A DNA stretch of 64,000 bases from Lysobacterales bacterium (GTDB taxonomy: Bacteria > Pseudomonadota > Gammaproteobacteria > Xanthomonadales > SZUA-5), in NCBI GenBank assembly GCA_022844165.1, contig JALHMH010000006.1:20167-84166 (forward strand), in the 5' to 3' direction. Every line of letters begins with the position of its first letter. Position 1 is the stretch's first letter. Of the stretch, positions 27,665-64,000 are shown piece by piece. The notes beneath the pieces were generated by a model. It worked only from the letters and a program-made list of their open reading frames with translations, made no database searches and was not told where the DNA came from. The position numbers were made by a program, and so were the translations under genes.

Positions 27665-28046
27665 GCAGCCTACGGCGCCGCACTGGCGGCGCCCGCGGCG
27701 GTTGATACTCGCTGGAGCGGATACTCTCGCGAACATGCCTCCGTTGCGCGCTCGCCGTGCCCATCGTTCGTGTCCGCGACCTTGCGGACGCGAGGATTGC
27801 GCGACATCGCCGCGCTCGGCTGCGCTGTACCAACAACGCTCTCTTTGAGGGGCAGTCGATGCTTTCAGTACCTTGCGCACACGTATGCAAACCGCTGTGC
27901 CGTCATGAATACGATTACAGCTAGACCAACTACTCTAGCGTCGCAGCTACCATCCCGGCCTCGTTAGCACTTCGTTAACGCGGTTTCATTTTTGGCCTGA
28001 ATGCTCGGTCGTGAGCGCATCGGCCAGCATCGAGAAGGGAGGAGTG

Positions 28047-30836
28047 ATGATGCAACTTAGACGCAATCTATTGACCGTGGCGATCGCATCGGCAGTACTC
28101 ATGGCGACCGGCAACGCGCACGCGCAGGACAATGCAGCCGGCGCCGACGCGGTCAACGAAACGCCTGCCCAGCGCCGCCAGCGCGAGGCAGAAGAACGCC
28201 GCGCAGCGCAGGAACTTGACGTCGTGCAAGTCACTGGTATTCGCGGTGCGATCGAGAATTCCACGGCCATCAAGAGAGATCAAACATCGATTGTTGAGTC
28301 GATCTCCGCCGAAGATATCGGAAAACTGCCGGACCAATCGATCGCCGAATCTATTGCTCGTTTGCCTGGGCTCTCCGCACAACGCGTGGCCGGTCGCGCG
28401 CAGGTGATCAGCGTTCGCGGGTTATCGCCGGATTTTGCGACCACCTTGTTAAATGGTCGGGAGCTGGTCAGCACCGGCGACAATCGCAGTGTCGAATTCG
28501 ACCAATACCCGTCTGAGCTCTTTAGTGGCGTGACCATCTATAAGACGCCGGATGCCGGCATAGTGGGCCAGGGATTGTCGGGCACCATTGACATGCGTAC
28601 CGTCAGGCCCCTGGATTACAAGGATCCGGTGTTTGTGGTTGGTGTCCGTGGCCAGCGCAATTCCTTGGGCAGCGCGGCCGATGCCAGTGGCACGGGAAGT
28701 CGCGTCAACCTGAGCTACATCGGCCAATCGGAAAATGGCAACTTCGGTTATGCATTAGGCATTTCGTATGCCGATACGCCAATTCAGGAAAACCAGGTGG
28801 GGTTGTATGAGCCGTGGCAGGCGATTGGTGCCGGTTGGCGCCCGGGCGTTCCAGCTGGCACGTTCTACTCGGACGGCATCAAAGCGTTGCGTCGTACTGG
28901 TTACACCGAACGTACGGGCCTGCTGGGAACGTTCCAATTGAATGCCACTGATACATGGACGAGCACGCTGGATGTTTTTTATTCGACAGCTGAACAAGAA
29001 GATACTGCCAATCAATTTGAAGTCAATCTCGGCGATTACAATGGCGGTTTTGATCGCCTGAGCGTGACTAACCCGGTCATCAATCCCAACGGCACTTTTG
29101 TCGGTGGTACTGCGAACAACGTCTATCCGCTGGTTCGCGGCATGTACAACAAGCGCGACGACACCATCAAAGCGTTCGGCTGGACCAACGAGTTTACGCT
29201 CGACGATATTTTGCTGACGGCCGATATCAATTGGTCGAAAGCCGATCGAGATGAATTAAGTCTGGAGAGTAATACCCAAAGACGCGTTCCAACCCCGAGT
29301 CTCGACTCAATCGACCTGGTGTTTCGCAGCAACGGCTTTTCACAATTGACTCCGCGCCGAACGTACTCGAACCCGGCGGATTTATTTTTGGACAACACGA
29401 TTTATGGTTCCGGTTACGGCAAGGTGCCGAGCGTGGAGGATGAGCTGACAGGCATTAAGCTGGCCGCCAATATGCCGGCCCCAGAATATTTCTCCATGCT
29501 GGCATCGCTTGATATCGGCGTTAATCGGGCTGAGCGCGACAAATCCAAGCGCCAGCCGGAGGGCCCTATCAACCTGGGCGCGCAAGGCCCGACGGCGATC
29601 GGCAGCGAGTTCCAGTTTCGGCCGGTTGATCTCGGTTTCGCGGGCTTGGGTACGATCCCGGCCTGGAACGTACCCGGTGCCGTCGCGCGCTATATGCGCT
29701 TCGAGCCGCGCGACGATCTGGACTTCCTGATTCCCAAAGCCTGGGACGTCAACGAGGTCATCACCTCGACTTGGCTGCGAGCAAATATCGACACGGTCTG
29801 GGGCGACATTCCGGTCCGCGGCAATGTGGGCGTTCAGGCGCAGCACGTCGACCAATCCTCTGAGGCCAATTACTTCGACCGAACGCGGCCGGTTGGACAG
29901 CAGATTCGACCCATTGGCGGCGGCAAGTCGTACACCGACTTTTTGCCGAGTTTGAATTTGTCCTTCGAGATCGCCGAGAACCAGCAACTTCGCGTTGGGC
30001 TTGCACGCCAGGTCGCGCGTCCTCGGGTTGATCAGTTGCGCGCCTCACTGGAGTTTGGCGTCAATACGGCAACCGGCGAACCGGGCGGGGCTGGCGGCAA
30101 TCCGCTGCTCGATCCGTGGTTGGCGAATGCGATCGACGTTTCGTGGGAGCGCTATTTCGAAGGCAATAAGGGCTATGTCGCGGCTGCCATCTTCCACAAG
30201 GACTTGCGCTCGTACATCTACACGCAAACTCTGGACGGATATGACTTCCAGGATTTGCTGGTCGGATTTGTTCCGCAGCCCGGCACGCCGCCGGTGCGGC
30301 GCTTTGGCAATTTCACAGCGCCGGCCAATGGCGAAGGTGGCGGGCTAACCGGCCTTGAGCTGACAGCATCGATACCGCTGGAGATGATGAGCGCATCGCT
30401 GGAAGGCTTTGGCGTACTGGCGAACGCGAGCTTTTATAACAGCAGTATCACGGTCCGCGACCCCGAAAGTGCCTCCAGCGTTGGCGGTGGCGACATTGAC
30501 CTGCCAGGGCTGTCGGATCGCGTGTTCAACCTGACGGCCTATTATGAACGCGATGGCTTCGAGGCGCGCATCAGCCAACGTTACCGATCTGACTTCATTG
30601 GCGAGATCGGCAACTTCAATGGCAATCGAACCTTGCGCTACGTTGTCGGCGAGAGCATCACTGATGCGCAGGTGAGCTACGCGTTCAAGGGCGGGCTGGA
30701 AGGCCTGAGCGTATTGCTGCAAGCCAGCAATCTGACGGACGAAGCGTATCGGACCTACGCCGGTTCGAAGGATCGGCCGCTCGAGTACATTGAGTGGGGC
30801 CGCACGTACTTGCTCGGCTTTAGCTATAAGCTCTAA
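28047..30836 (+). CDS. TonB-dependent outer-membrane receptor
   Basis: Signal peptide MMQLRRNLLTVAIASAVLMATGNAHA, plug domain (LDVVQVTGIRGA, VISVRGLSP), and a C-terminal barrel ending in FSYKL. SD gggagg upstream. Confidence 0.9.
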   Translation: MMQLRRNLLTVAIASAVLMATGNAHAQDNAAGADAVNETPAQRRQREAEERRAAQELDVVQVTGIRGAIENSTAIKRDQTSIVESISAEDIGKLPDQSIAESIARLPGLSAQRVAGRAQVISVRGLSPDFATTLLNGRELVSTGDNRSVEFDQYPSELFSGVTIYKTPDAGIVGQGLSGTIDMRTVRPLDYKDPVFVVGVRGQRNSLGSAADASGTGSRVNLSYIGQSENGNFGYALGISYADTPIQENQVGLYEPWQAIGAGWRPGVPAGTFYSDGIKALRRTGYTERTGLLGTFQLNATDTWTSTLDVFYSTAEQEDTANQFEVNLGDYNGGFDRLSVTNPVINPNGTFVGGTANNVYPLVRGMYNKRDDTIKAFGWTNEFTLDDILLTADINWSKADRDELSLESNTQRRVPTPSLDSIDLVFRSNGFSQLTPRRTYSNPADLFLDNTIYGSGYGKVPSVEDELTGIKLAANMPAPEYFSMLASLDIGVNRAERDKSKRQPEGPINLGAQGPTAIGSEFQFRPVDLGFAGLGTIPAWNVPGAVARYMRFEPRDDLDFLIPKAWDVNEVITSTWLRANIDTVWGDIPVRGNVGVQAQHVDQSSEANYFDRTRPVGQQIRPIGGGKSYTDFLPSLNLSFEIAENQQLRVGLARQVARPRVDQLRASLEFGVNTATGEPGGAGGNPLLDPWLANAIDVSWERYFEGNKGYVAAAIFHKDLRSYIYTQTLDGYDFQDLLVGFVPQPGTPPVRRFGNFTAPANGEGGGLTGLELTASIPLEMMSASLEGFGVLANASFYNSSITVRDPESASSVGGGDIDLPGLSDRVFNLTAYYERDGFEARISQRYRSDFIGEIGNFNGNRTLRYVVGESITDAQVSYAFKGGLEGLSVLLQASNLTDEAYRTYAGSKDRPLEYIEWGRTYLLGFSYKL

Positions 30837-49886: not shown

Positions 49887-51410
49887 CTAACCAACCCGCA
49901 AGCGCAGCCGCAAGCCGAGTTCGTCGAAGGTGTTTTTTTCCTGCCGAAGGTCGGTCCAGGTCAACGGATGCTTGGTCAGCCAGCCGCGCGGGAATTTGAG
50001 GTCGAAGTCGCGGCCGAGGATGTTGACGGTCAGCGGTGGCAGGGCTTCTTCGCTGCGTGCACGGTGCAGGACCACGGCGAGTCGGAAAATCGCCAAGGTC
50101 TTTTGAAAACGGTCGAGATCACGTTCGGCGATGTCTTCGAAGGTGTGATCGGGAATTCCGCGGCGATGGCCGAGCACCAGCGCCGCGACGGTTGCTTGTT
50201 CTTGCCGGGAGAAGCCCGGCAAATCCGAATGTTCGATAATGTACGCGCCATGTTTGTGGTGTTGCGTATGCGAGATCGACAGGCCGATCTCATGCACCAG
50301 CGTGGCGTACAACAAGGTGTCGCGCTCTTCCTGCATCAGACCCCAGCCGGCGGCCGCCTGGTCGAACAGATTGAGCGCCGTGGCCTGCACGCGCAGCGCC
50401 TGCGCCTGATCCACGGCATAGCGTTTTGCCAGCGTGCGGATGCTGCGTTCGCGCGGATCCTGCTGTTGCTGGCGGCCGAGCGAATCGTACAACAAACCCT
50501 CGCGCATTGCGTAGTCGCTGACGCGTAACAGATCCAGATCGAGCGCCTCATAACACGCCCAAAGCGCCGCCAGACCGCCGAGGAAAATCGGTCGGCGGTC
50601 TTCGCTCAGCGACGGCAAACGTGCGCGCTGCACAACGCCCACTTCGATGACGCGATCAATCAAATCCAGCAATCCGGCGCGCGTCACTTCGCGCTCGCGG
50701 CCACCCATCGCATGCAGAATGCTGCTCAGCGACTTGACGGTTCCAGAGCTGCCGATGACACGTTTCCAGCCGCGCGCTTTGTACGCGGCCAGTATCGGCT
50801 GAAATTCGATGGACAGCCGCAACTGCGCATCTTGCCAACGTTTGCGCGTGACTTTGCCGTCGGCAAAAAAGCGCTGCGAGGTGGCTACGCAGCCGAGCTG
50901 CAGACTCTCGGTTTCCAGTGTGTCGAAGCCGCGGCCGATGATCAGTTCGGTACTGCCGCCGCCGACATCGATCACCAACTGCTGTTGGCGCGGATCGTTC
51001 AGTCCGTGCGCGACGCCCAGGTAAATCAGCCGCGCCTCTTCGCGACCGGAGACCACCTCGATGGGTGCGCCCAGCGCGGTTTCCGCGGTCATCAGGAAGG
51101 CGCGCGGCGATTTCAGCTGGCGCACCGAGTTGGTCGCCACAGCGCGAATGCGCTCCCGCGGCACATTGCTCAGGCGTTGCCCAAAGCGCGATAAACAGGC
51201 GATCGCCCGCTCGCGGACGTCCGGGTTCAGTTGCCCATCTGCGGTGAGCCCAGCGGCCATGCGGACCGAATCGCGCAGGCGGTCGACGACCTGCAGCTCA
51301 CCTTCGGAAAAACGGGCGACGATCATATGGAAACTGTTCGACCCAAGATCGACCGCGGCCAGCGGCGTACTATCGACGATGTCTTTAGGGTCGAACGGCA
51401 TTTCTATCAT
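49887..51410 (-). CDS. ppx: exopolyphosphatase (Ppx/GppA family)
   Basis: AAVDLGSNSFHM, DVGGGSTE. The ATG overlaps the ppk stop (ATGA). Confidence 0.9.
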   Translation of the reverse strand: MIEMPFDPKDIVDSTPLAAVDLGSNSFHMIVARFSEGELQVVDRLRDSVRMAAGLTADGQLNPDVRERAIACLSRFGQRLSNVPRERIRAVATNSVRQLKSPRAFLMTAETALGAPIEVVSGREEARLIYLGVAHGLNDPRQQQLVIDVGGGSTELIIGRGFDTLETESLQLGCVATSQRFFADGKVTRKRWQDAQLRLSIEFQPILAAYKARGWKRVIGSSGTVKSLSSILHAMGGREREVTRAGLLDLIDRVIEVGVVQRARLPSLSEDRRPIFLGGLAALWACYEALDLDLLRVSDYAMREGLLYDSLGRQQQQDPRERSIRTLAKRYAVDQAQALRVQATALNLFDQAAAGWGLMQEERDTLLYATLVHEIGLSISHTQHHKHGAYIIEHSDLPGFSRQEQATVAALVLGHRRGIPDHTFEDIAERDLDRFQKTLAIFRLAVVLHRARSEEALPPLTVNILGRDFDLKFPRGWLTKHPLTWTDLRQEKNTFDELGLRLRLRVG

Positions 51411-53458
51411 CCTGCAATGCGCGCCAGCAGCGCGCTCTGCGCCGCGTGCGGCATGTCGTCGCCCGCTTCGACGCGCACGTAACTGCCGTCGCTCTGCAGG
51501 CGCCACGCCTGCGTGTTGTCGGCCAGGTAGTTCTCCAGAGTCTCGTTGAAGACACGCTGTCGCAGGCTCGAATCGAGAATCGGAAAGCAGGTCTCGACGC
51601 GGTTCAACAGATTGCGTTCCATCCAATCGGCGCTGGACGCATACAGCTCTTCGCGACCGTTGTTGTAGAAATAACAGACGCGGGAATGTTCGAGAAAACG
51701 GCCGACGATGGAATACACGCGGATGTTGTCGCTGACACCCGGCACGCCCGGCCGCAGCACACAAATCCCGCGTACGAACAACACCACTTCGACGCCAGCT
51801 TCGCTGGCACGATAGAGCGCGTCGATGACCTGCGGTTCGCTCAACGCGTTCATGCGCGCCAGGATTTTTCCGCCCTTACCGGCGCGCGCGTTCTTGGCCT
51901 CGCGGTCGATCTTGTGGATCAGCTGTTTGTGCAGCGTAAACGGCGAATGCAGCACTTGTTTGAGCTTGATCGCCTGACTCAAGCCTGACAACTGCTGGAA
52001 CAGCTTGTGCACATCTTCGCCGATGTCGGTATCGGCCGTGATCAGACCGATATCGGTGTAAACGCTGCTGGTGCCCTGGTGATAGTTGCCGGTTCCCAAA
52101 TGCACGTAGCGCCTGAGCTTGCCGTTTTCGCGGCGCACGATGAGCAGCATCTTGGCGTGCGTCTTGTAACCGACCACGCCATAGACCACCTGCACGCCGG
52201 CCTCCTGCAGCCGATTGGCCAGATCGATGTTCGCCTCTTCATCGAAGCGAGCGCGCAGCTCAACGATGACGGTGACATCCTTGCCGGCGCGGGCGGCTTC
52301 TATCAAGTAGTCGACCAGCACCGATTTGCGACCGGTGCGATACAGTGTTTGTTTGATCGCCAACACATCGGGATCGTGCGCGGCGGTTTTCAGCAAATCG
52401 ACGACGGTCGAAAAACTGTCGAAAGGATGGTGCAACAACACATCCTGCTCGCGCACCATATCGAACACATTGCCGACCTTCGGCGCCTGAATCCGCGGCT
52501 TGAACGCCTGGTACTTCAAATCCGGTCGGTCGACCAGGTCGTACACCGCGCCGACGCGGTTCAAATTGACAGGCCCATTGACGCGGAACATATCGTCTTC
52601 GCTGAGTTCGAAGTGTTCCAACAGATACTGGCCCAGCGCGCGCGGGCAACTGTCGGTAATTTCCAGGCGCACCGCGCGTGCGAAGCCGCGATCGAGTAGC
52701 TCGTCGCGCAGCGCGTGCGCCAGATTTTCCACATCGAATTCGTCGACCCACAACTCACTGTTGCGCGTGACCCGAAACGGGTAGACCCCTTTGACCTTCA
52801 TGCCAGGGAACAGATCGTCGACGAAGTCCTGCAAGATGGTGCTCAGCAGCACGACATCGTGCGTGCCGTTGGAAATTTCTTTCGGCAGCCGCACCAGGCG
52901 CGGCAACGAGCGCGGCGCACGCACCAGCGCCAGATCCGCTTCGCGACCGAAGGCGTCTTTGCCCTTCAGCGCCACCGCCACATTCAAACTCTTGTTCAAG
53001 ATCCGTGGGAACGGGTGCGCAGGGTCCAGACCCAGCGGGCTCAACACTGGCATCAGCTCGTCGTTGAAATAACCCTGCAACCAGCGCCGCTGCTTCGCAT
53101 TCCACTCGTCGCGCATCAAAAAATTGATGCCCTGCGCGGAGAGTTTGGGTTTGAGTTCCTGATTCCAGGTTTGGTACTGCTCGCGCACCAGGCTCAACGC
53201 TTCGGTGCGAATCGCCGCCAACACATCAGCAGCAGTGCGTCCGTCCGGCCACGGTTTGCTCGCCAGAAAGTTCACCTGGTGGCGAATCGATGCCACCCGG
53301 ACCTCGTAGAACTCATCGAGATTGGTGCACGAAATGCACATGAAGCGCAGGCGCTCAAGCAGCGGCACACGATCATCCTGTGCCTGGGCAAGCACGCGCC
53401 GATGGAATGCGAGCAAACTGGTTTCGCGGTTGAGAAATAGGCTGGGATCGCGACTCAC
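51407..53458 (-). CDS. ppk: polyphosphate kinase 1
   Basis: 683 aa. LNRETSLLAFHRRVL N-terminus and two PLD-like HKD-type segments (KTHAKMLLIVR). Confidence 0.93.
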   Translation of the reverse strand: MSRDPSLFLNRETSLLAFHRRVLAQAQDDRVPLLERLRFMCISCTNLDEFYEVRVASIRHQVNFLASKPWPDGRTAADVLAAIRTEALSLVREQYQTWNQELKPKLSAQGINFLMRDEWNAKQRRWLQGYFNDELMPVLSPLGLDPAHPFPRILNKSLNVAVALKGKDAFGREADLALVRAPRSLPRLVRLPKEISNGTHDVVLLSTILQDFVDDLFPGMKVKGVYPFRVTRNSELWVDEFDVENLAHALRDELLDRGFARAVRLEITDSCPRALGQYLLEHFELSEDDMFRVNGPVNLNRVGAVYDLVDRPDLKYQAFKPRIQAPKVGNVFDMVREQDVLLHHPFDSFSTVVDLLKTAAHDPDVLAIKQTLYRTGRKSVLVDYLIEAARAGKDVTVIVELRARFDEEANIDLANRLQEAGVQVVYGVVGYKTHAKMLLIVRRENGKLRRYVHLGTGNYHQGTSSVYTDIGLITADTDIGEDVHKLFQQLSGLSQAIKLKQVLHSPFTLHKQLIHKIDREAKNARAGKGGKILARMNALSEPQVIDALYRASEAGVEVVLFVRGICVLRPGVPGVSDNIRVYSIVGRFLEHSRVCYFYNNGREELYASSADWMERNLLNRVETCFPILDSSLRQRVFNETLENYLADNTQAWRLQSDGSYVRVEAGDDMPHAAQSALLARIAG

Positions 53459-54979: not shown

Positions 54980-55214
54980 CGAGCGTGGCGCGGCAGCATC
55001 TTCCGACGAAGCTTGCGACGGGACCGGTCCACTAATGCGGATCGCACCCAGCCGACCAGCCCGCGGCGACCGCAGGTCGCATACCAGCAGCGGGCGCGGC
55101 TGGGTGCGATCCGAGAGTGCCGAACGGGCCCGTGAAGAAAAAGCCACAGACCAGCATGCGCGGCGTAACGCCGCACGGGTTGCGAAGACGAACAGCTCGT
55201 CCGCGCCACGCTCG
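54980..55214 (-). ncRNA. candidate retron msr-msd non-coding RNA
   Basis: A perfect 14-nt inverted repeat brackets the region (cgagcgtggcgcgg at 54980-54993, ccgcgccacgctcg at 55201-55214). An internal 74-nt hairpin (55039-55112) has a perfect 16-bp basal stem (ggatcgcacccagccg / cggctgggtgcgatcc) plus inner 6-bp and 5-bp stems. Two small hairpins lie in the 5-prime part on the minus strand (GACGA-GCTGT-TCGTC and GCGGCG-TTA-CGCCGC). The region ends 20 nt upstream of the RT ATG. Exact msr/msd ends are unknown. Confidence 0.7.
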
Positions 55215-55250
55215 ATTCTTTCTACGTCAGCCAATCTCAAGATGCAAGCC

Positions 55251-56954
55251 TCAGCCATGTTGCGCGTCCTCCTGGCCGAGCCGTTGCATATGCACCAAAC
55301 GCAAACCAAGCACATGCGGGCATGGCCCTTTGGTCAAGCCGTCGCGCAACATCTGTGCACAGGTACACGAGGCGCTCAAGATCTCGCCGCTATGGCTGAT
55401 ATGCAACTGCGGCCTGACGCGGCTGCTGCCATCGGCCGCATTGCCGGAGAGTTTGTAGCCGTCATCGACCGGACGCCGCGCGATGATCACCACGTCGCCG
55501 GCGGCGGCGATGGCTTGGGCCGCTTTGGCTTTGGGTTGGCTGGCTTCGTGTTTTTTCGCCGCCGTCAGCGCTTGTGCCGCATCGAAGGCCTGCAAGGTCA
55601 GGTCGCGGTGGCGCACGCACTCACTGCCAAGATCGATCATCGCGCGCCCGGCTTGCGCCAACAGGCTCAGCGCACTGCGGGTTTTTTCGATGCCGAATCC
55701 CAGACTCGACGCCAGTTCCGGCGTGCGCGCCCAGCGTTGCCCACGCAGCGTGGTGTACACCCGATCGAGTTCCGGCGCGGTGACTGCCAATCGCTGCGTC
55801 AACAGGTCGAATCGCCCTTCGCCCTCGACCCAGTCGTTGTCGGTCCACCCGGACAACGCCAGCGTGAACTCGATACCACATGGCAGCGCGCACACCCAGA
55901 CGCTCGGCAGACCGCTGGCCGACAGGTACACATCCACGTGTCGCGCAACGGGCAACACGCGCAACAGGCTGCGCAATCGCTCGCGCCCCCAGACGCGAAT
56001 CGTCGCGATTTTGTCGCCGCCGTACACACTGGATGGCGAGCACCAGATCGAGCGATTCCAAGGCTCCAGCACCAGCCGCACCGGTTCGCCGGGGCGCAGC
56101 TCGAAACGCAGCGCGCGTGGACTCTCGCGGGTTTTGTGTGTCAGCAAAAAGTTCAGCGCGTTGAGCACGTCGACCGGTTGCAAGCGCAGCCGGATCAAAC
56201 CCATCGACATCAATCCGTGTACCCGCAAAAAACCTTCGAGCCAACCTTCGGGCAGGTCGATACGTTTTTCCAGCGCGGTGGCATCACCGGCTTTGGGTTC
56301 GAGGCGTTCGGAAGCGAAACCGCCGGCGCCGATATCGAAGCGCGTCGCGCGATAACTGCGCAGGCGATCGAAGTGATCGGCGAGCCGCGCGCTGAAATCG
56401 ATGTTGGTAGTTCCATATTCGATCGCTTCGATGCGCTCGAACGCAGCCAGCGGCAGCGCGAGTCGACCATAACTCGACTGGTCGCGCGAAAACGCCTCGA
56501 ACGAGAGTTGATCCGGGTGCACAGTGATCACCGGGTCCAGCACCCGATTCAGTTCAACATCGCTGCTGACGGCGTATTGCATCCAGCGCTGGCGCGCAGC
56601 GTCGAAGGGTAGTCGGCGCGCCGCGCGGGCGGCGTCGAGTTCGATCAGACGCGCGTTCAATTCCGCCATCCGCGACTTCGCCGCGAGCGACTTGCTGCCC
56701 AGACTGGCGACGAATGCCTGGTCCTGGCGCTCCAGCCACGCGCGGTAAGCAAGACGCGCCTTGGGACGATATTTGTAGTCGCCAACCACCACCGAATACA
56801 GCGCAGCGAAGCTCTCGCGCGCCAGCAGCGGCTGCGCCAGCGTGCCGCGGAAAAAGGTCGCCTCGCGCAACTGGTTGGTCGCCAATGCCAGCCGCGCGTC
56901 AGCGCCGTGCATCTCGACGCCGCTGCGGCCCGAGTAGCGGTATTCGATGCTCAT
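55251..56954 (-). CDS. winged-helix + SWIM zinc-finger protein
   Basis: C-terminal SWIM signature CTCAQMLRDGLTKGPCPHVLGL (CxC..CxH) preceded by a WH-like segment (TPELASSLGFGIEKTRSALSLLAQAGRAMIDL). 4-nt overlap with the upstream ARM/HEAT gene. Confidence 0.8.
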   Translation of the reverse strand: MSIEYRYSGRSGVEMHGADARLALATNQLREATFFRGTLAQPLLARESFAALYSVVVGDYKYRPKARLAYRAWLERQDQAFVASLGSKSLAAKSRMAELNARLIELDAARAARRLPFDAARQRWMQYAVSSDVELNRVLDPVITVHPDQLSFEAFSRDQSSYGRLALPLAAFERIEAIEYGTTNIDFSARLADHFDRLRSYRATRFDIGAGGFASERLEPKAGDATALEKRIDLPEGWLEGFLRVHGLMSMGLIRLRLQPVDVLNALNFLLTHKTRESPRALRFELRPGEPVRLVLEPWNRSIWCSPSSVYGGDKIATIRVWGRERLRSLLRVLPVARHVDVYLSASGLPSVWVCALPCGIEFTLALSGWTDNDWVEGEGRFDLLTQRLAVTAPELDRVYTTLRGQRWARTPELASSLGFGIEKTRSALSLLAQAGRAMIDLGSECVRHRDLTLQAFDAAQALTAAKKHEASQPKAKAAQAIAAAGDVVIIARRPVDDGYKLSGNAADGSSRVRPQLHISHSGEILSASCTCAQMLRDGLTKGPCPHVLGLRLVHMQRLGQEDAQHG

Positions 56955-59431
56955 GCCACCGCCTCGAACGCACTGCTGAGCGTCGGAAACAGCAGTCTCA
57001 AGCGCGTCAAAGTGACGGCGATTGCCTCAAAGTCGCGTTGATTCGCGGTGCGCAATGCGGCATCCAGGATATCGATGGCGATGCGCGCCTGGCTTTCATC
57101 GCTGGCGCCGCGATCGGCGACGATGGCGAACAAACGGTCTTTGGCCGATCGCGCCAGGCGCGGCGTCAACAGGCTGGATCGCAAAAACGGCGCCAGGCGA
57201 CTGAACGCATCTGTGCCCTGCGGCCAGTGCGCGTCGAGGAGTCCGAGCGCCAGTTGGCGCATCGCCACGTGCGGGTGTTCGATGAGCCGCTGCAATAGCT
57301 GCGGTGCATCAAGATCGGACAGTCGTGCAATCACGATGCGCGTGGCGAAGGCTTGCACATCGCTGCGATTGGAATCGCACAAAGCGACCAGCGCATCGAG
57401 CGATAGCGCGGTCGCGTCGAGCCGTTGCAACAACGCAAAAGCGTGCGCGCCGTTGTCGCTGAATCGCGACTCGGCGAGTTGGATCAGCGGCCAGGGATCG
57501 ATCTGCAGCTGCGGTAAAGCGCGTTCGAGCAAAATCGCTGCCGCGCCGCGCACGCTTTGCACTTCATCTTCTGCAAGCATCGCCAGGCGCGCACTGCCGA
57601 GCAGCGTCAACGATTGTGGGTGGGCGGCGAGCAGCGCGCCACCCAGCGTGCGCTGGGTCAGCGTACCATCCTGCACCAGCGCCAGAACCTGCAGCAGCGG
57701 CAGCGTTGCCGCGGCTACGTCGGCGTAGGCGGTCAGTACCGTCAGCAGCGCCTCGTCGCGTTCACTCGGCGCCTCGCGCATGGCGTGCAGCAGGCGCTCA
57801 AGCACTGTGATGCGCGGCGCATCGTCGAGCACGGCAAGCACCGCCTGGGTGAGCTGCGCGATCGCCTGCCGACCGGCATCGGTGCGCCGACGCATCAGCC
57901 GCGGCAGTTGCGCGTGCACGATCCACACCGACGCGCTGCGGCTCAAGAACGCCTGCGCCAAAGCACGCGCCAGATCGCCACCATCGAGTAGTGCCGCGAG
58001 CAGTTTCAGATCCGGCACCGTCGCGTCGAAGCGGCGCTCGGCCTCGGCGCGCGCACTGGCGGCAATCCGCGGCGTATCGATCAGCGCCGCAAGATCGGTG
58101 GGGCTGGCGGTTGCAATCGCCTCCGGGTGGCGCATCAGTCCGTCGATACCGAACGCGCGGACCTCATCGAGCCCACCGGTGGCCAGGCTCACGAACGCTG
58201 CCGGCTTGGCATCGAAGCGATCGACGAAGGGCACGTCGGCGAGCAGCCAGGGTGTTTTGACCGCTGCCGTGTCGCGATAACACACGCGGCTCATCGCATC
58301 GACGCGTTGGCGTTTGCCTTTGCCGTGCAACAAGCGATGCAGCATCAACGCGTACACAAAAGGCGACTGCAAGGCACGCGGCGCGCGCGCATCGTCGGCG
58401 CCATAACGCCGCAGCACGGCCGCGGCGGCAAGTGGGTACAAATCGCGCCGCCAGTACGCCAGAAGGCGCAGCCAGCGCGCGCTGGCGCGACACACGTAGG
58501 CCTGCGTTTTGGCGCCGAACACCAGCGTCGATCGCGATTGCCCATCCAAGCCGCTCTTCAGCGACTGGCGCGCGCCGGCGGTGCGTGCGCGACGCCGCTC
58601 GAAGGCCAACGCCAACTCGGCAAACGTCTCAAGATCGGCGCGCAGCATCGCGCGTTTCCAAATGCTCTTGGTGTACCGCCAACGATGCGGCGCATCCCAA
58701 TCCGCCGTCGTGCGGCGCACCGCTGCGACGCACAGCGGCGTGCCGAATTCGTAGAGTTGATCGAGCACCAGGCCGCGCCGCGGCGCATCGATGCCATCGA
58801 TCGCAGCGCACAGCGCATCGACAGCGGCCTGCGCAGTCGATTGTTCGTCCAGGCCAATCAATGTTGCGCGCAACGTATCCGGCAAACGCTGCAATCCTTC
58901 GGCGCGTGCTGTCGCCAAACCCTCCGCATCGCCCAGCGCGCGCAATGCCTCGACACCCGAGCGGCGGCGCGACAGCAGCTTCTTCGCCGCCTGCTCGCGT
59001 AGTAGCGCTATGGCGCGTGTGTCGCCGATGCGTCCCAGAGCATCGACGATCACCCCGATCTCCGGCGGGTTCTTCGCCGCCAATCCGAGCAGCGCCGGAA
59101 CCGCATCCACGGCTTGCCGCCATCCCAGCGCCGTCGCCGCCAGCGCCCGTGGCTTTTGATGCAGCGATGAAAGTCGCTCGATCAGCGGCTCATGCCCACC
59201 GACTTCGGCGTAACCCGCGATCCGCAGGCGCTCGAGCACATGCTGCATCCGCGCTTGCGTTTCGGTCTGCGCGAAGGGCCCATACACGGTGCCGCCGGTC
59301 AACTGCTGCCGCGAAGGACCGGTCGCCAGGCGCAAAAGAATCTGCCCCGGCGCACTCGCGGCCTCGATCGACAGCAGCGTGTATCGCGAATGCGCTGCGG
59401 CATGCGGACTCTTGAGCAGGATCGGCGACAT
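56951..59431 (-). CDS. large alpha-helical ARM/HEAT-repeat protein with possible N-terminal WGR-like domain
   Basis: 826 aa, Leu/Ala-rich helical repeats. HEAT-like units (AVPALLGLAAKNPPEIGVIVDALGRIGDTRAIALLRE). The N-terminal ~70 aa has a beta-rich pattern ending in LERLRIAGY, reminiscent of WGR/MolR-type N-domains (tentative). Confidence 0.65.
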   Translation of the reverse strand: MSPILLKSPHAAAHSRYTLLSIEAASAPGQILLRLATGPSRQQLTGGTVYGPFAQTETQARMQHVLERLRIAGYAEVGGHEPLIERLSSLHQKPRALAATALGWRQAVDAVPALLGLAAKNPPEIGVIVDALGRIGDTRAIALLREQAAKKLLSRRRSGVEALRALGDAEGLATARAEGLQRLPDTLRATLIGLDEQSTAQAAVDALCAAIDGIDAPRRGLVLDQLYEFGTPLCVAAVRRTTADWDAPHRWRYTKSIWKRAMLRADLETFAELALAFERRRARTAGARQSLKSGLDGQSRSTLVFGAKTQAYVCRASARWLRLLAYWRRDLYPLAAAAVLRRYGADDARAPRALQSPFVYALMLHRLLHGKGKRQRVDAMSRVCYRDTAAVKTPWLLADVPFVDRFDAKPAAFVSLATGGLDEVRAFGIDGLMRHPEAIATASPTDLAALIDTPRIAASARAEAERRFDATVPDLKLLAALLDGGDLARALAQAFLSRSASVWIVHAQLPRLMRRRTDAGRQAIAQLTQAVLAVLDDAPRITVLERLLHAMREAPSERDEALLTVLTAYADVAAATLPLLQVLALVQDGTLTQRTLGGALLAAHPQSLTLLGSARLAMLAEDEVQSVRGAAAILLERALPQLQIDPWPLIQLAESRFSDNGAHAFALLQRLDATALSLDALVALCDSNRSDVQAFATRIVIARLSDLDAPQLLQRLIEHPHVAMRQLALGLLDAHWPQGTDAFSRLAPFLRSSLLTPRLARSAKDRLFAIVADRGASDESQARIAIDILDAALRTANQRDFEAIAVTLTRLRLLFPTLSSAFEAVA

Positions 59432-59441
59432 GTGCTGAGGT

Positions 59442-60152
59442 TTACTCGAACTCGCTGTCGTCGAAGTCCTCGAGGGCGCCCGCCAGAGTGGGTTTCGACG
59501 GCGTCACGCCCATGCTTTCCAGCGCTGGCGCAGCTTGCTTGCGAAAACCGCTGGCCGGTGTCAACGGGCCGAGAATGCCCTCAAGCGCCATGCGCATCTG
59601 CTGGAAGTCGCGAAACGCGTGTTCGCGGAACAGATCGTACGCCGTCCACATCAGATCGGCGCAGATTTCGGCAGGCACGCGACCCGTTTGCGCGCCCAGG
59701 CCGGGCAACGCCACGGAGCGAATCGAACCGGGTTCTTCGGTGTTCTGGATATGCACCGCCTGGAACGCTGCCGCGCACGCCAGCGCCACGTTCATGCTGG
59801 CACTGATGTCTTGATTGGACGACACCATCGTTGGCGTCGAAATCAGAAACCTGGGCTGCACGCGTTCCGTGGGCACGCACACGGCATGACCGACCGGCAT
59901 CGCACCTTGATGCTTGCGCTTGATTTCGCCTTTCACCTGATGCTCGATCTTCGCGCCCAGAAAATTCTTGATGACCAGATCGAGCCCGCCATCCATGCTG
60001 CCGGCCGAATTCGTCGGCGATACCCAGGCGCTGACCGGTTGATCGAGCATCGAACCATGCACGATCTCGACTTCTGGGTTGCCCTCAAAACTGGCGCGCC
60101 ACGCGGCGATGATCTTCGGATTAATGTCGACGAGGAGAACTTTGACGAGCAT
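59442..60152 (-). CDS. macro-domain protein (putative ADP-ribose binding/hydrolase)
   Basis: VSPTNSAGSMDGGLD (N..G.GGG-type diphosphate loop variant) and SVALPGLGAQTG (second macro loop). Only 10 nt from the ARM/HEAT gene start. Confidence 0.75.
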   Translation of the reverse strand: MLVKVLLVDINPKIIAAWRASFEGNPEVEIVHGSMLDQPVSAWVSPTNSAGSMDGGLDLVIKNFLGAKIEHQVKGEIKRKHQGAMPVGHAVCVPTERVQPRFLISTPTMVSSNQDISASMNVALACAAAFQAVHIQNTEEPGSIRSVALPGLGAQTGRVPAEICADLMWTAYDLFREHAFRDFQQMRMALEGILGPLTPASGFRKQAAPALESMGVTPSKPTLAGALEDFDDSEFE

Positions 60153-60222: not shown

Positions 60223-61653
60223 CTAAATCGTAAACTCAACCAAATACTCCAGGCGCTGTTGATTCGGCGAGTACACCACATACTCGTCGTCGGCGAATTG
60301 CGATGGCGAGAGCAGTTTGTGACGCACGCCGTGGCATGAATCGTAGCCCGGCGGTGGGCTTTCGAGCCCATACGTGATCTTCGTGTACGGCGCCATCTTG
60401 CCCAGCGCGACGCGCGCCAGCGCCATGAAACGCGTGCCTTTTTTGCCGGGCGTGGTGTAAAAGGCGCTGGTGCAGGCGGCGTCGCCGAAGTAGATGCCAT
60501 GGCCAAGCCATCCGGCGTCGGTGCGATTGACGCCCATACCGACCACAATCTTCGGCATCAAAATGCCGCGCGACAACAAGCCCACCCAGTTGCGAATCCG
60601 CGAGCCGTGGAACAACAACCGCTGGTTGTCGATATGCGTGGTGAACCCATCCCACTCGCCTTTGCGCTTGAGCGTGTAGATGGCTTTGACTTTGATGTTC
60701 TTGCTCTTGATCTGCGACTTCAGCACGTAGCGTTCGATTTCGTCGTAGGCACTGCCTTGACCCAAAGTGGCGACTTCGCAGTGAAGCGCCTGATATTTGG
60801 CATCGATCTCGTCCTCGAACAAGACACTGCCGGCCTCGCCGTTGACTTGCAGCATGTCTTTCATCAGCTGCAAGGTTTCTTGCTTCTGCTCGAATTCGGC
60901 GGGGGTGTCGATGACCGCTTCGGCGATCGCCTCGCGGGTGCGACCGATACGATGCGGAATGCAGGTGTAGAACTCGCCCGACAGTGCCTCGATTTTGTCT
61001 TGCAGTTTGCCGTTGGCCTTTTTGCTCGACTCGAAGATCTTGAACAGCTCGGCCAGGATCGCCTCGCCTTTTTCGATCTGCCCGAGCGTCAAAACGCCGA
61101 GCGGCGTTTCGATGCCGTTGGCCGTGATCTTGGCCGCAACGGTGTTGACCAGTGCGGTCGTGGCCTCATCGTAGATGTAGCGAATCAGCGCCTGGATATC
61201 ACCCGTCAGCGACGACGGTGGGCGCGCCGCGCGCTTCTCTTTTTCGCCCTCGATACGCTCCAGCGTCTTGGCGTCGATCTGCCCACTGGAGGCGCCGCGC
61301 GCCTTATGCGAACCGATTTTGCTCGAGGCCAGCGAAACTTCTTTGTAGCCTTTGCTGGCCCCGGTTTTTTCCCGGTAGATCTGCTGGTAACAGACTTCTC
61401 CCTCGGCGCGCGTCGCGAAGTGTCGCGTCTCACGAGCACCCGCACCGGGATTGGTTTCCAGATCATCGGTACGACCGTAATGCGTGAAGACGCGAAACTT
61501 GCCGCCGCCTTCATGCAATTCGATCGCGTAGTACTTGTTGTGATTGCTCTTGATATCGGTGACCTGCAGCACCGCCTTTTGCAGCACTTCGAAATCTTCC
61601 GGAAAGCTCGGCTCGTCGCTGGCGCCGAATTTGTAGGCTTTGGGTTTGGCCAT
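60223..61653 (-). CDS. WGR + helical regulatory domain + PARP catalytic domain protein (eukaryote-like PARP)
   Basis: WGR segment NHNKYYAIELHEGGGKFRVFTHYGRTD. HD segment LSGEFYTCIPHRIG (compare PARP1 LSNRFYTLIPHDFG). Catalytic H-Y-E residues lie in LFHGSR, GIYFGD and DDEYVVY. Confidence 0.88.
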   Translation of the reverse strand: MAKPKAYKFGASDEPSFPEDFEVLQKAVLQVTDIKSNHNKYYAIELHEGGGKFRVFTHYGRTDDLETNPGAGARETRHFATRAEGEVCYQQIYREKTGASKGYKEVSLASSKIGSHKARGASSGQIDAKTLERIEGEKEKRAARPPSSLTGDIQALIRYIYDEATTALVNTVAAKITANGIETPLGVLTLGQIEKGEAILAELFKIFESSKKANGKLQDKIEALSGEFYTCIPHRIGRTREAIAEAVIDTPAEFEQKQETLQLMKDMLQVNGEAGSVLFEDEIDAKYQALHCEVATLGQGSAYDEIERYVLKSQIKSKNIKVKAIYTLKRKGEWDGFTTHIDNQRLLFHGSRIRNWVGLLSRGILMPKIVVGMGVNRTDAGWLGHGIYFGDAACTSAFYTTPGKKGTRFMALARVALGKMAPYTKITYGLESPPPGYDSCHGVRHKLLSPSQFADDEYVVYSPNQQRLEYLVEFTI

Positions 61654-62775: not shown

Positions 62776-64000
62776 TCAGGCTGCGCCATGCAGCGACTCG
62801 CACATGGAATTGTCGAGATCCGCAAGAAATTCCGAAGCCGGTCGAACACTGGTCACCAACAAGCGCTCTCGGGCACGTGTGCTGGCGACATACAACAAGT
62901 GTCGCTCAGTGGCATAGACATTCGCCAAATCGGCCTCATCGCTGATGGCCTCGATGCGGGATTGCAGCGGAACGATCTCATCATCGCAAGCCATCACGGC
63001 AACAGCGCGGAACTCCAGACCCTTCGCCAGGTGCATCGCACCGATCGAGATAGCACCCACTGACGTATCGGCATGCTCGTCAAGTAGCTTGAATTGCAAC
63101 CCTGCCGTTGTGGCAGCGGCTTTAGCACGCTCAAGTTGCTCGAAGGAACGAACGAAAAGCGCTATTTCATGGAGCGAAATTAGCTCTCCAGCGCGTGCAC
63201 ATAGCCACTGCGCAACATGCGCTATCTCCTGGGCTTCGCTATCGAAGCACCGAATGATTGGCGCGGGCCCGTTAAACACCGAGATAGTGCCGCGGCGGCT
63301 ATCGGTATTGCCGTCGACATCGGAAATTTCCTCGTCAAGCAGACGATCGGCCTGGATTCGAATTTGGTGGGACGTGCGGTAATTCACCTTCAGCGTACGC
63401 GAGCGACCGCGCACATCGACACCCAGTGTGGCCCAAGAAAAAGGCGTCTGGAAGATCCGCTGCCCCAAATCGCCGGCGAAGAACAGCCCATTCGCGTGAT
63501 CGCCCGATAAGGCCGCAAGGAAGCGCAACTGCGCGACGCTAATGTCCTGCGCCTCGTCGATTACCGCATGCTGATAAGGTCGATTCGCTTGCTGCTGTTC
63601 GGCAAGCCGGTGGAACATTGCCGCCCGCGTCATCAACTGAGCCGTTTCAAGCGCTTGCCAGACGCGCTCGAACACCTGCCACAACGCGGCACGCTGCGCC
63701 TCGTTGAGCCGCGTCTTGCGTCCCAAACGCTTGACGTCGCGATAGGCTTCCCAAGTGCGCAACTGCCAGGCGTCGACGATCTCCTGCCACTCCTGGCGCA
63801 CGAACGCGACATTGAATCGAAGATTCTCGCCGCGCGTCGCGCCTGCGAGCATTTGCGCAACGTCTGCGTCGCTCGCCAAAGAGCCGCGCTTGCCGAAGAG
63901 CCGCTCGCCGAGAGCGTCCATAGCGTACACATCGATGCGCTCGCCGAGCCTGGGCTGAGCTTTGATGAGCTTGCGCAAACGATTGTGCAGCGCGTTGGCG
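62776..64000 (-). CDS. UvrD/Rep-like superfamily 1 helicase, N-terminus beyond window
   Basis: VIDEAQDIS (motif II), FFAGDLGQRIF, NYRTSHQI, HLAKGLEF and YVASTRARERL (motif VI). The reading frame stays open to the window edge. Confidence 0.8.
   Translation of the reverse strand, partial: ANALHNRLRKLIKAQPRLGERIDVYAMDALGERLFGKRGSLASDADVAQMLAGATRGENLRFNVAFVRQEWQEIVDAWQLRTWEAYRDVKRLGRKTRLNEAQRAALWQVFERVWQALETAQLMTRAAMFHRLAEQQQANRPYQHAVIDEAQDISVAQLRFLAALSGDHANGLFFAGDLGQRIFQTPFSWATLGVDVRGRSRTLKVNYRTSHQIRIQADRLLDEEISDVDGNTDSRRGTISVFNGPAPIIRCFDSEAQEIAHVAQWLCARAGELISLHEIALFVRSFEQLERAKAAATTAGLQFKLLDEHADTSVGAISIGAMHLAKGLEFRAVAVMACDDEIVPLQSRIEAISDEADLANVYATERHLLYVASTRARERLLVTSVRPASEFLADLDNSMCESLHGAA

Follow-up and report, generated by a model that had tools for sequence, protein, structure and literature searches.

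The window considered here, a stretch of 64,000 nucleotides (nt) from a Lysobacterales bacterium (contig JALHMH010000006.1), contains a gene for a protein of the PARP family of ADP-ribosyltransferases, which is one of six genes lying on one strand and tightly packed against each other. In order, these genes encode an ADP-ribosylglycohydrolase (ARH), the PARP, a Macro-domain protein, a HEAT/ARM-repeat protein, a SWIM zinc-finger protein and a reverse transcriptase (RT). The gaps are short, with 40 nt between the ARH and PARP genes, 70 nt between PARP and Macro, 10 nt between Macro and HEAT, and an overlap of 4 nt (−4) between HEAT and SWIM, whereas the gap between SWIM and RT is 291 nt and forms the slot for a non-coding RNA (ncRNA). 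An earlier note on this sequence had placed the PARP in a defence-type context, and this is borne out by PADLOC, which identifies a type XIII retron directly downstream of the PARP gene on the same strand. Comparison with related loci, as set out below, shows that the PARP gene is no chance neighbour of a defence locus, and is a fixed part of the retron in one subclade.

Type XIII retrons are defined by an RT, a SWIM protein, a HEAT protein and an ncRNA (Mestre 2020, PMC7736814). All of these features are found in the window, with an RT of the type XIII clade, a SWIM protein that carries the CxCx12CxH motif, a HEAT/ARM protein, and a structured ncRNA adjoining the RT gene. The translation of the RT contains the motifs YADD, NAQNH (of the form NAxxH) and VTG. 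Folding of the spacer between SWIM and RT gives a minimum free energy of −149 kcal/mol (z −3.5), the spacer having terminal inverted repeats and forming a long hairpin, and a core of ca 200 nt is conserved in an alignment of 27 loci, in which 23 of the 32 consensus pairs show compensatory changes. As a control, 90.8% of the cells in this alignment are paired, as against 32–41% when the partners are slid, and none of 500 shuffles reaches the observed covariation. No Rfam family fits the ncRNA, the only two matches being sub-threshold and attributable to chance. The N-terminal 90 residues of the HEAT protein are conserved; considered as a possible WGR domain, they give no Pfam WGR match and a probability of 0.2% in an hhalign comparison with the PARP WGR profile. 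A promoter scan of the window returned no promoters, and a terminator scan gave matches at the level of shuffled controls. From its sequence, the retron in the window looks intact.

With regard to the PARP itself, Pfam, alignments to the PDB and Foldseek all agree that the open reading frame (ORF) encodes a bacterial WGR-HD-ART protein, that is, one with a WGR domain, a helical regulatory domain (HD) and an ADP-ribosyltransferase (ART) catalytic domain, and that its catalytic triad is complete, as the earlier note had read it. All three domains score above their Pfam gathering scores, and the catalytic match, which spans residues 303–446, puts the protein inside the PARP family with 104 bits, the cut-off being 26.7. 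All sequence matches in the PDB are PARPs, with E-values of 2e-45 for the PARP4 catalytic domain, 2e-27 for the WGR-HD-ART part of PARP2, and 5e-22 for both PARP3 and PARP1. In a residue-level alignment H349, Y388 and E457 fall on the histidine-tyrosine-glutamate (H-Y-E) triad of PARP4 (DDEFVVY), PARP2 (YNEYIVY) and PARP3 (SEYLIY), such that a misalignment of the triad, which the earlier note had named as a risk, is not seen. Indeed, the triad is unchanged across 118 aligned homologues of 64–88% identity. The motifs quoted in that note are likewise all present in the translation, with KYYAIEL at residues 40–46, HYGRTD at 58–63, FYTCIPHRIG at 228–237, LFHGSR at 347–352, GIYFGD at 386–391 and DDEYVVY at 455–461, a match far above chance.

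An AlphaFold2 model calculated from the 118 sequences has a mean predicted local distance difference test score (pLDDT) of 82.5 and a predicted template modelling score of 0.75; a smaller alignment of 25 homologues had given low confidence for the ART domain (pLDDT 60.8), and the model from it was set aside. Foldseek matches this model over its full length to the WGR-HD-ART chains of PARP1 and PARP2 on DNA breaks (E ca 1e-27, template modelling (TM) scores up to 0.67), and to the PARP4 catalytic domain with target TM scores of 0.79–0.82. The likeness to PARP1 previously drawn for the protein therefore stands in part, since FYTCIPHRIG does align to PARP1 FYTLIPHDFG, but the nearest solved relative of the HD-ART region is PARP4 and not PARP1. 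The term ‘eukaryote-like’ likewise calls for caution, since the family is widespread in bacteria, where this clade alone is large (> 860 matches, 60–88% identical across phyla), and a transfer, if there was one, may have run either way.

The WGR domain, in which YGR replaces WGR, can be aligned to that of PARP3 (2eoc). Across the 118 homologues N37, N39, K40, Y41, Y42, Y59, G60, R61, K101, G102 and Y103 are invariant, and these residues make up the stretches N37–Y42, Y59–R61 and K101–Y103, the same three that Garcia-Saura 2018 linked to DNA-dependent activity (PMC5966428). The HD, the retention of which had also been noted earlier, contains the sequence PLGVL aligned to PLGKL of PARP1, such that L185 and L188 correspond to L698 and L701 of its leucine switch; both leucines are again invariant. 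Given these invariant WGR contact stretches and switch leucines, gating of the enzyme by nucleic acid is plausible. The linker between the WGR domain and the HD is Ser/Lys-rich and predicted to be disordered (pLDDT 25–41), and it holds the invariant residues I113, G114, S115, R119, G120, G124, D127 and T130, which may form an automodification or partner-binding motif.

The output of the ART domain is best considered by comparison with PARP4. The last 111 residues of the domain score 94 bits against PARP4, 38 against PARP3, 31 against PARP2 and 16 against PARP1, and they align to PARP4 with no internal gap except for one residue; on these bit scores the closest solved relative of the protein is the vault PARP4. 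PARP4 keeps H-Y-E yet is a mono-ART owing to a defective acceptor site (Frigon and Pascal 2023, PMC10711553), and therefore H-Y-E alone is no argument for polymer formation. The features involved are T484 in the place of PARP1 K903, E544/D545 in the place of L985/Y986, a short loop without the equivalent of H826, and also N471 and K516, and mutation K903A turns PARP1 itself into a mono-ART (PMC10711553). When these features are mapped onto a sequence alignment of the window PARP with PARP4, T484 is matched by T395 and D545 by D455, both invariant in the 118 homologues, and the ungapped alignment gives a loop of PARP4 length. In other words, the window PARP does not carry the PARP1-type acceptor site, with lysine at the K903 position, histidine at the H826 position and non-acidic residues at 985/986. 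Because three of the acceptor-breaking features of PARP4 are shared, mono-ADP-ribosylation appears more likely than polymer synthesis, and the earlier suggestion that retention of the catalytic glutamate indicates poly- or oligo-ADP-ribosylation is weakened.

Features of the locus, with coordinates in the window unless another locus is named.
Feature	Position (nt)	Strand	Evidence or remark
PARP-family ADP-ribosyltransferase, 476 aa, ATG start	60223..61653	minus	ORF, Pfam, PDB, AlphaFold2 and Foldseek
WGR domain, aa 26–106, YGR replacing WGR	61336..61578	minus	Pfam WGR E 2.5e-9, 37.5 bits
WGR-HD linker, aa 107–146	~61216–61335		pLDDT
HD, aa 147–268, PLGVL at PARP1 leucine-switch site	60850..61215	minus	Pfam PARP_reg E 9e-18, 65 bits
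ART catalytic domain, aa 303–476, PARP4-like	60226..60747	minus	Pfam PARP E 8e-30, 104 bits
ADP-ribosylglycohydrolase (ARH/DraG family), 338 aa	61694..62710	minus	Pfam ADP_ribosyl_GH E 4e-60; 40 nt upstream of PARP
Macro-domain protein, 236 aa, N-x6-GGLD motif	59442..60152	minus	Pfam Macro E 4e-12
HEAT/ARM-repeat protein, 826 aa, Mestre cluster 216-like	56951..59431	minus	PADLOC WGR_XIII E 2e-69, HEAT-ARM_XIII E 1.5e-43
SWIM zinc-finger protein, 567 aa, CxCx12CxH: CTCAQMLRDGLTKGPCPH	55251..56954	minus	PADLOC SWIM_XIII E 5e-154
Retron ncRNA (msr-msd) candidate, core ~54995–55190	54991..55250	minus	folding, covariation
Retron reverse transcriptase type XIII, 465 aa	53562..54959	minus	PADLOC RT_XIII E 1.5e-150, Pfam RVT_1
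ppk1 and ppx/gppA-like genes	49887–53458		housekeeping
TonB-dependent receptor	28011–30836		Xanthomonas/Caulobacter subfamily
UvrD/GajB-like helicase ORF, 400 aa, TTG start	62776–63978	minus	
aceE / 2-oxoglutarate dehydrogenase E1-like ORF, 1010 aa	20062–23094	minus	residues 792–844 match sigma-70 (RpoD) region 4
LigA-like ligase	L004 11033–12940; L040, L042, L060, L076, L107, L119, L124, L129 downstream of ARH; L062, L093, L099 nearby		
PARP-Macro fusion P0073, 753 aa	L160 10001–12262		
PARPb	L142 14430–16064; L160 2821–4530		WGR-HD-ART

The two genes that flank the PARP encode proteins of eraser families, the types present being Macro and ARH (no search was aimed at PARG homologues). The ARH is matched in the PDB by MJ1187, DraG and ARH3, and by its sequence is a DraG/ARH3/MJ1187-type enzyme. 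The Macro protein is less easily placed, as its PDB matches are weak (the DarG macrodomain 5m31 at E 8e-4, and yeast 1njr) and its best match, in PADLOC and the PDB together, is DarG at E 6e-4 to 8e-4. Nevertheless, N48-x6-G55-G56-L57-D58 is conserved in 52 Macro sequences (PTNs.g.MDGGLD), a motif which we take to be a MacroD-type signature. Given the conserved GGLD motif, together with a methionine at the position of the DarG lysine (discussed further below), the Macro protein is likely to be a hydrolase of a type that is left open, and it is probably the cognate ADP-ribosyl hydrolase of the PARP.

The linkage of these genes was examined in 80 genomic loci of the PARP clade (L001–L080, 59–79% identity), which were chosen via the PARP and come from metagenome-assembled genomes (MAGs) of Myxococcota, Planctomycetota, Acidobacteriota, Xanthomonadales and Alcaligenaceae; neighbours were searched for by tblastn with the neighbour proteins of the window. 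The closest related loci belong to one Xanthomonas MAG and to Rhodanobacteraceae MAGs. The Macro gene lies directly downstream of PARP in 75 of the 80 loci, at a median gap of 42 nt, and where at least 8.2 kb of downstream sequence is available (n = 50) HEAT and SWIM are both found in 35 loci and RT in 32. Moreover, every locus that holds PARP, SWIM and RT (55/55) has the colinear order PARP>Macro>HEAT>SWIM>RT on one strand, and these complete cassettes span Myxococcota, Planctomycetota, Acidobacteriota and Proteobacteria. Thirty-one of these 55 also have an ARH gene, in variable position.

The converse test was a metagenome scan seeded with an alignment of the SWIM protein, in which loci with enough upstream sequence were counted. 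Where the SWIM protein is at least 44% identical to that of the window, PARP is found in 17 of 19 loci, Macro in 18 and ARH in 13; where it is 33–40% identical, none of the three is found at the cassette position (0/9). In a neighbour-joining tree of SWIM proteins, one clade is free of PARP (9/9), and the other, the PARP clade, has PARP in 57 members and lacks it in two that are nested within it. Of these two, L086 keeps the Macro gene and L090 has neither, and the absence of PARP from both is probably due to secondary loss. The PARP and the retron proteins diverge in parallel, their pairwise distances being correlated at r 0.78 for HEAT, 0.75 for SWIM and 0.69 for RT (Mantel p 0.001). From these comparisons we conclude that the PARP-Macro pair entered one sub-lineage of type XIII retrons in a single event and was then inherited with it. 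The earlier note had hinted at a connection with multicopy single-stranded DNA (msDNA), the product of the retron, and this hint is strengthened by the conserved linkage of the PARP and retron genes.

The account that we favour, at somewhat better than even confidence, is that the PARP, which looks active from its sequence, is a nucleic-acid-gated, reversible ADP-ribosyltransferase module. Its gene would open the core of a conserved cassette, PARP > MacroD-like hydrolase > HEAT > SWIM > msr/msd ncRNA > RT, and the cassette would define a subtype of type XIII retrons that bears a PARP. In this account the WGR domain would bind a nucleic-acid end or junction, the likeliest ligand being the retron's own msDNA, whether matured or perturbed by phage, with phage DNA ends as an alternative. 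Binding would then be relayed by the leucine switch of the HD, such that the ART domain opens and uses NAD+ to place mainly single ADP-ribose units on itself, on its cassette partners, or on phage or host targets, and this modification would halt the phage or the cell that it infects. The two erasers, Macro and ARH, would in turn take off the ADP-ribose, hold basal activity at a harmless level and return the switch to its resting state. The PARP may act as a killing effector, as a licensing sensor for the SWIM/DEDE protein, or as a regulator of msDNA. Its catalysis, mono or poly output, ligand, targets and anti-phage role are all points that we infer from sequence.

Several observations weigh against this account. 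The loci L001–L080 were picked through the PARP, so the forward frequency of linkage is biased, which is not the case for the SWIM-seeded set. The core proteins of the retron correlate among themselves at 0.85–0.92, that is, more tightly than the PARP does with them, and ca 30% of the PARP-Macro pairs in the clade have no retron within 10 kb. The residue of the Macro protein aligned with the lysine of the DarG PTK motif, presumably the catalytic lysine of DarG, is methionine (PTM). Two of the features of the PARP4 acceptor site are not shared by the window PARP, which has W382 for N471 and I426 for K516, and oligomer synthesis is therefore possible. In PARP4, which has V286 and I289 at the leucine switch, the HD is not fully autoinhibitory (PMC10711553). 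Finally, an anti-phage function has yet to be demonstrated for type XIII retrons, and Mestre 2020 (PMC7736814) points to partly vertical inheritance and to possible non-defence roles.

Some of these observations would also be accommodated if the PARP and Macro proteins, with or without the ARH, form a self-contained module, toxin-antitoxin-like or engaged in stress or DNA-damage signalling, which is only co-located with type XIII retrons. The retron-free pairs imply that the PARP-Macro pair is viable alone, and it is fusions of PARP and Macro that mark the tightest unit in the cassette. The PARP is also the more conserved component, with a mean distance of 0.35 as against 0.43–0.59 for the retron proteins, its correlation with which is the lower one, and pairs of an ART with a macro protein, such as DarTG, do work alone (PMC5966428). 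Set against this, the same order and strand are kept in all 55 cassettes across four phyla, whereas neighbours in genomic islands usually shuffle in order and orientation; the Macro and HEAT genes of the window are only 10 nt apart; and on the SWIM tree the PARP is restricted to one clade with two losses, and the Mantel p is 0.001. Such a module is, in our estimation, an unlikely explanation of the locus.

The natural fusions are P0073 and P0039 (729 aa), of which the former stands at the usual cassette position, with HEAT, SWIM-like and RT genes behind it. Among the retron-less PARP-Macro loci, a search for a shared replacement partner found shared ORFs in one subgroup only (L030, L036, L043, L047 and L054), none of them with a Pfam match. 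These loci have in common an upstream protein of ca 140 aa, with a weak likeness to a double zinc ribbon, and two downstream ORFs of ca 300 and ca 830 aa, which may be an alternative partner set. A scan of viral contigs from IMG/VR gave five homologues of the PARP at 50–60% identity and a sixth, fragmentary match of 74% over 68 residues. Counted by contig (L161–L165, some of 250–460 kb), four have homologues at 50–60% identity, and the fifth, L165, has the fragmentary match. None of the five contigs carries Macro or retron genes, and they thus provide no evidence for a phage-borne cassette.

A different role for the PARP within the retron is conceivable, in which it would modify the ends of the retron's own msDNA or msr, or the RT, and thereby regulate the maturation or stability of msDNA as a regulator and not a killer, the ends being processed by Macro and ARH and at times also by a LigA-like ligase. 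PARP1–3 can modify the phosphates of DNA ends, and the nucleic-acid-binding stretches of the WGR domain are invariant. The nearest solved relative of the Macro protein, although a weak one, is a hydrolase that acts on ADP-ribosylated DNA, DarG, but the likeness is marginal (E ca 1e-3) and methionine stands at the position of the catalytic lysine. Moreover, type XIII retrons already have a predicted nuclease effector in the SWIM/DEDE protein (PMC7736814). The type XIII retrons that have no PARP, however, possess RT, SWIM and HEAT proteins of the same kind, and their existence means that the synthesis of msDNA needs no PARP. We consider this role distinctly improbable.

The ligase invoked in this proposal is linked to 14 of the 55 complete cassettes and absent from the window. 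It is a LigA-like, NAD-dependent DNA ligase paralogue of ca 660 aa with adenylation and OB domains, typically placed in the order ...RT>ARH>LigA, and its identity between loci is only ca 30%, which makes a paralogue specific to this system more probable than the housekeeping ligase.

A reading that extends the poly- or oligo-ADP-ribosylation suggested in the earlier note, that of a true poly(ADP-ribose) polymerase engaged in PARP1/PARP2-like DNA-break signalling and repair, has in its favour the intact triad, a leucine switch like that of PARP1, the polymer made in vitro by the bacterial enzymes HaPARP and CdPARP, the departures from PARP4 at W382 and I426 and the ligase sometimes linked, but it is made very improbable by T395 and D455 at the positions of K903 and Y986, by the short loop without an H826 equivalent, by an ART domain closer to the mono-ART PARP4 (94 bits as against 16–31 for PARP1 and PARP2), and by a retron context with no repair genes.

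Returning to the preferred account of a gated, reversible module, a bolder form of it may tentatively be put forward, in which the PARP is the msDNA-gated output enzyme of an unrecognised retron subtype, and the vault PARP4 may descend from, or share an ancestor with, the retron-associated bacterial PARPs, as its PARP4-like catalytic module would suggest. A second vault protein, TEP1, carries a TIR-like NADase that has anti-phage relatives in bacteria (bioRxiv 10.64898/2026.05.01.722283), and the origin of that domain would be parallel to a descent of PARP4 from retron-associated PARPs. If the account is correct, a PARP-family enzyme would for the first time have a defined role in an immune-type system of prokaryotes, and a PARP-type enzyme would be added to NAD+-based prokaryotic immunity. 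Two old questions, the function of bacterial PARPs and that of type XIII retrons, could become testable together, through the hypothesis that msDNA or DNA ends made during infection are the ligand that switches on ADP-ribosylation. The poorly understood PARP4 would also gain a bacterial sister group.

A few further features of the window and the related loci deserve mention. The cassette is followed by housekeeping genes, ppk1 and a ppx/gppA-like gene, and a TonB-dependent receptor gene lies upstream; with such genes beside the cassette, its setting appears to be chromosomal, in a Xanthomonadales-like host and with no obvious mobile element. The UvrD/GajB-like helicase ORF starts 22 nt from the end of the window, and is either truncated or cut by the window, as it is without the first ca 137 positions of the N-terminal helicase profile, including the Walker A part. 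It has no homologue in any of 159 related loci and, on that account, is probably outside the system. In the 1010-aa ORF, the match to sigma-70 region 4 breaks the E1 match, and may be an artefact of ORF calling or an odd insertion. In two unrelated contigs a second, PARP1/2-like lineage of WGR-HD-ART proteins (‘PARPb’), 24% identical to the window PARP and not sharing its closeness to PARP4, lies close to type XIII retrons together with a conserved neighbour of 220–290 aa. One of the two retrons is a distant one without the PARP described here, and the other contig is that of the P0073 fusion cassette, L160. PARPb may be an independent association of a PARP with a retron.

Bacterial PARPs are said to have been described by Slade in 2011. 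They have been known since ca 2011–2014, have activity in vitro, and have a function listed as unknown (Perina 2014, PMC4245714; PMC5966428), two examples being HaPARP of Herpetosiphon aurantiacus and CdPARP of Clostridioides difficile, both of which make poly(ADP-ribose) in vitro (PMC4245714, PMC5966428). By published description, the window PARP resembles these in its WGR-PARP_reg-PARP layout, its length (ca 450–500 aa), the H-Y-E triad, tyrosine or phenylalanine at the first position of WGR, and the presence of erasers in the genome. The studies of those enzymes, however, covered 28–72 scattered sequences with no retron context, whereas the clade described here is large, has a PARP4-like ART domain and is locked into a retron cassette with Macro.

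The retron of the window resembles the type XIII group of Mx162, Mx65, Sa163 and Ne144 in all of its defining parts, RT_XIII, SWIM with CxCx12CxH, HEAT/ARM and a structured ncRNA beside the RT. Mx162 was the first retron to be described. The published definition of the type is without PARP, Macro and ARH, which here are fixed upstream components of one subclade; indeed, ‘PARP’ and ‘ADP-ribos’ occur nowhere in the main text of Mestre 2020 (PMC7736814), and a 2026 survey of retron diversity names no ADP-ribosylation for type XIII. A literature search for retrons with a PARP, WGR, macro domain or ADP-ribosylglycohydrolase returned nothing relevant, an earlier mention being possible in PMC6126934 or in the supplements of Mestre 2020.

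DarTG provides a parallel for the pairing of a writer with an adjoining macro eraser, the more so as DarG is the best match of the Macro protein. The writer here, however, is of the PARP type and not a DarT-family ART, the DarG match is marginal with methionine at the PTK lysine, and the pair forms part of a retron cassette of five genes. The pair is thus not a DarTG system, which consists of a DarT-family ART and a DarG macrodomain with its catalytic lysine. PARP2 and PARP3 share with the window PARP the three-domain layout without zinc fingers, and are matched by it over their full length in Foldseek and phmmer. Both are activated by 5′-phosphorylated breaks, and PARP3, the WGR domain of which can be aligned to that of the window PARP, is a mono-ART with a short loop (PMC10711553). 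Their identity to the window PARP is nonetheless only ca 22–25%, and they keep the acceptor-site lysine (K469 and K421, respectively) where the window PARP has T395.

The closest solved structure is that of PARP4 (8sx1, 8swy; E 2e-45), with which the window PARP shares the WGR-HD-ART arrangement, threonine at the K903 site, aspartate at the Y986 site and the short loop. The differences lie in the leucine switch, which has leucines in place of V/I, in W382 and I426 as against N471 and K516, and in the overall architecture, the window PARP having three domains only and being without the BRCT, VIT, vWA and MINT/MVP-interacting regions. PARP4 is thus the nearest relative by sequence, whereas by architecture the window PARP is no orthologue of it. 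PARP4 is itself located in a ribonucleoprotein particle, the vault, where its partners are MVP, TEP1 and vault RNA, whereas the partners of the window PARP are the proteins of a retron.

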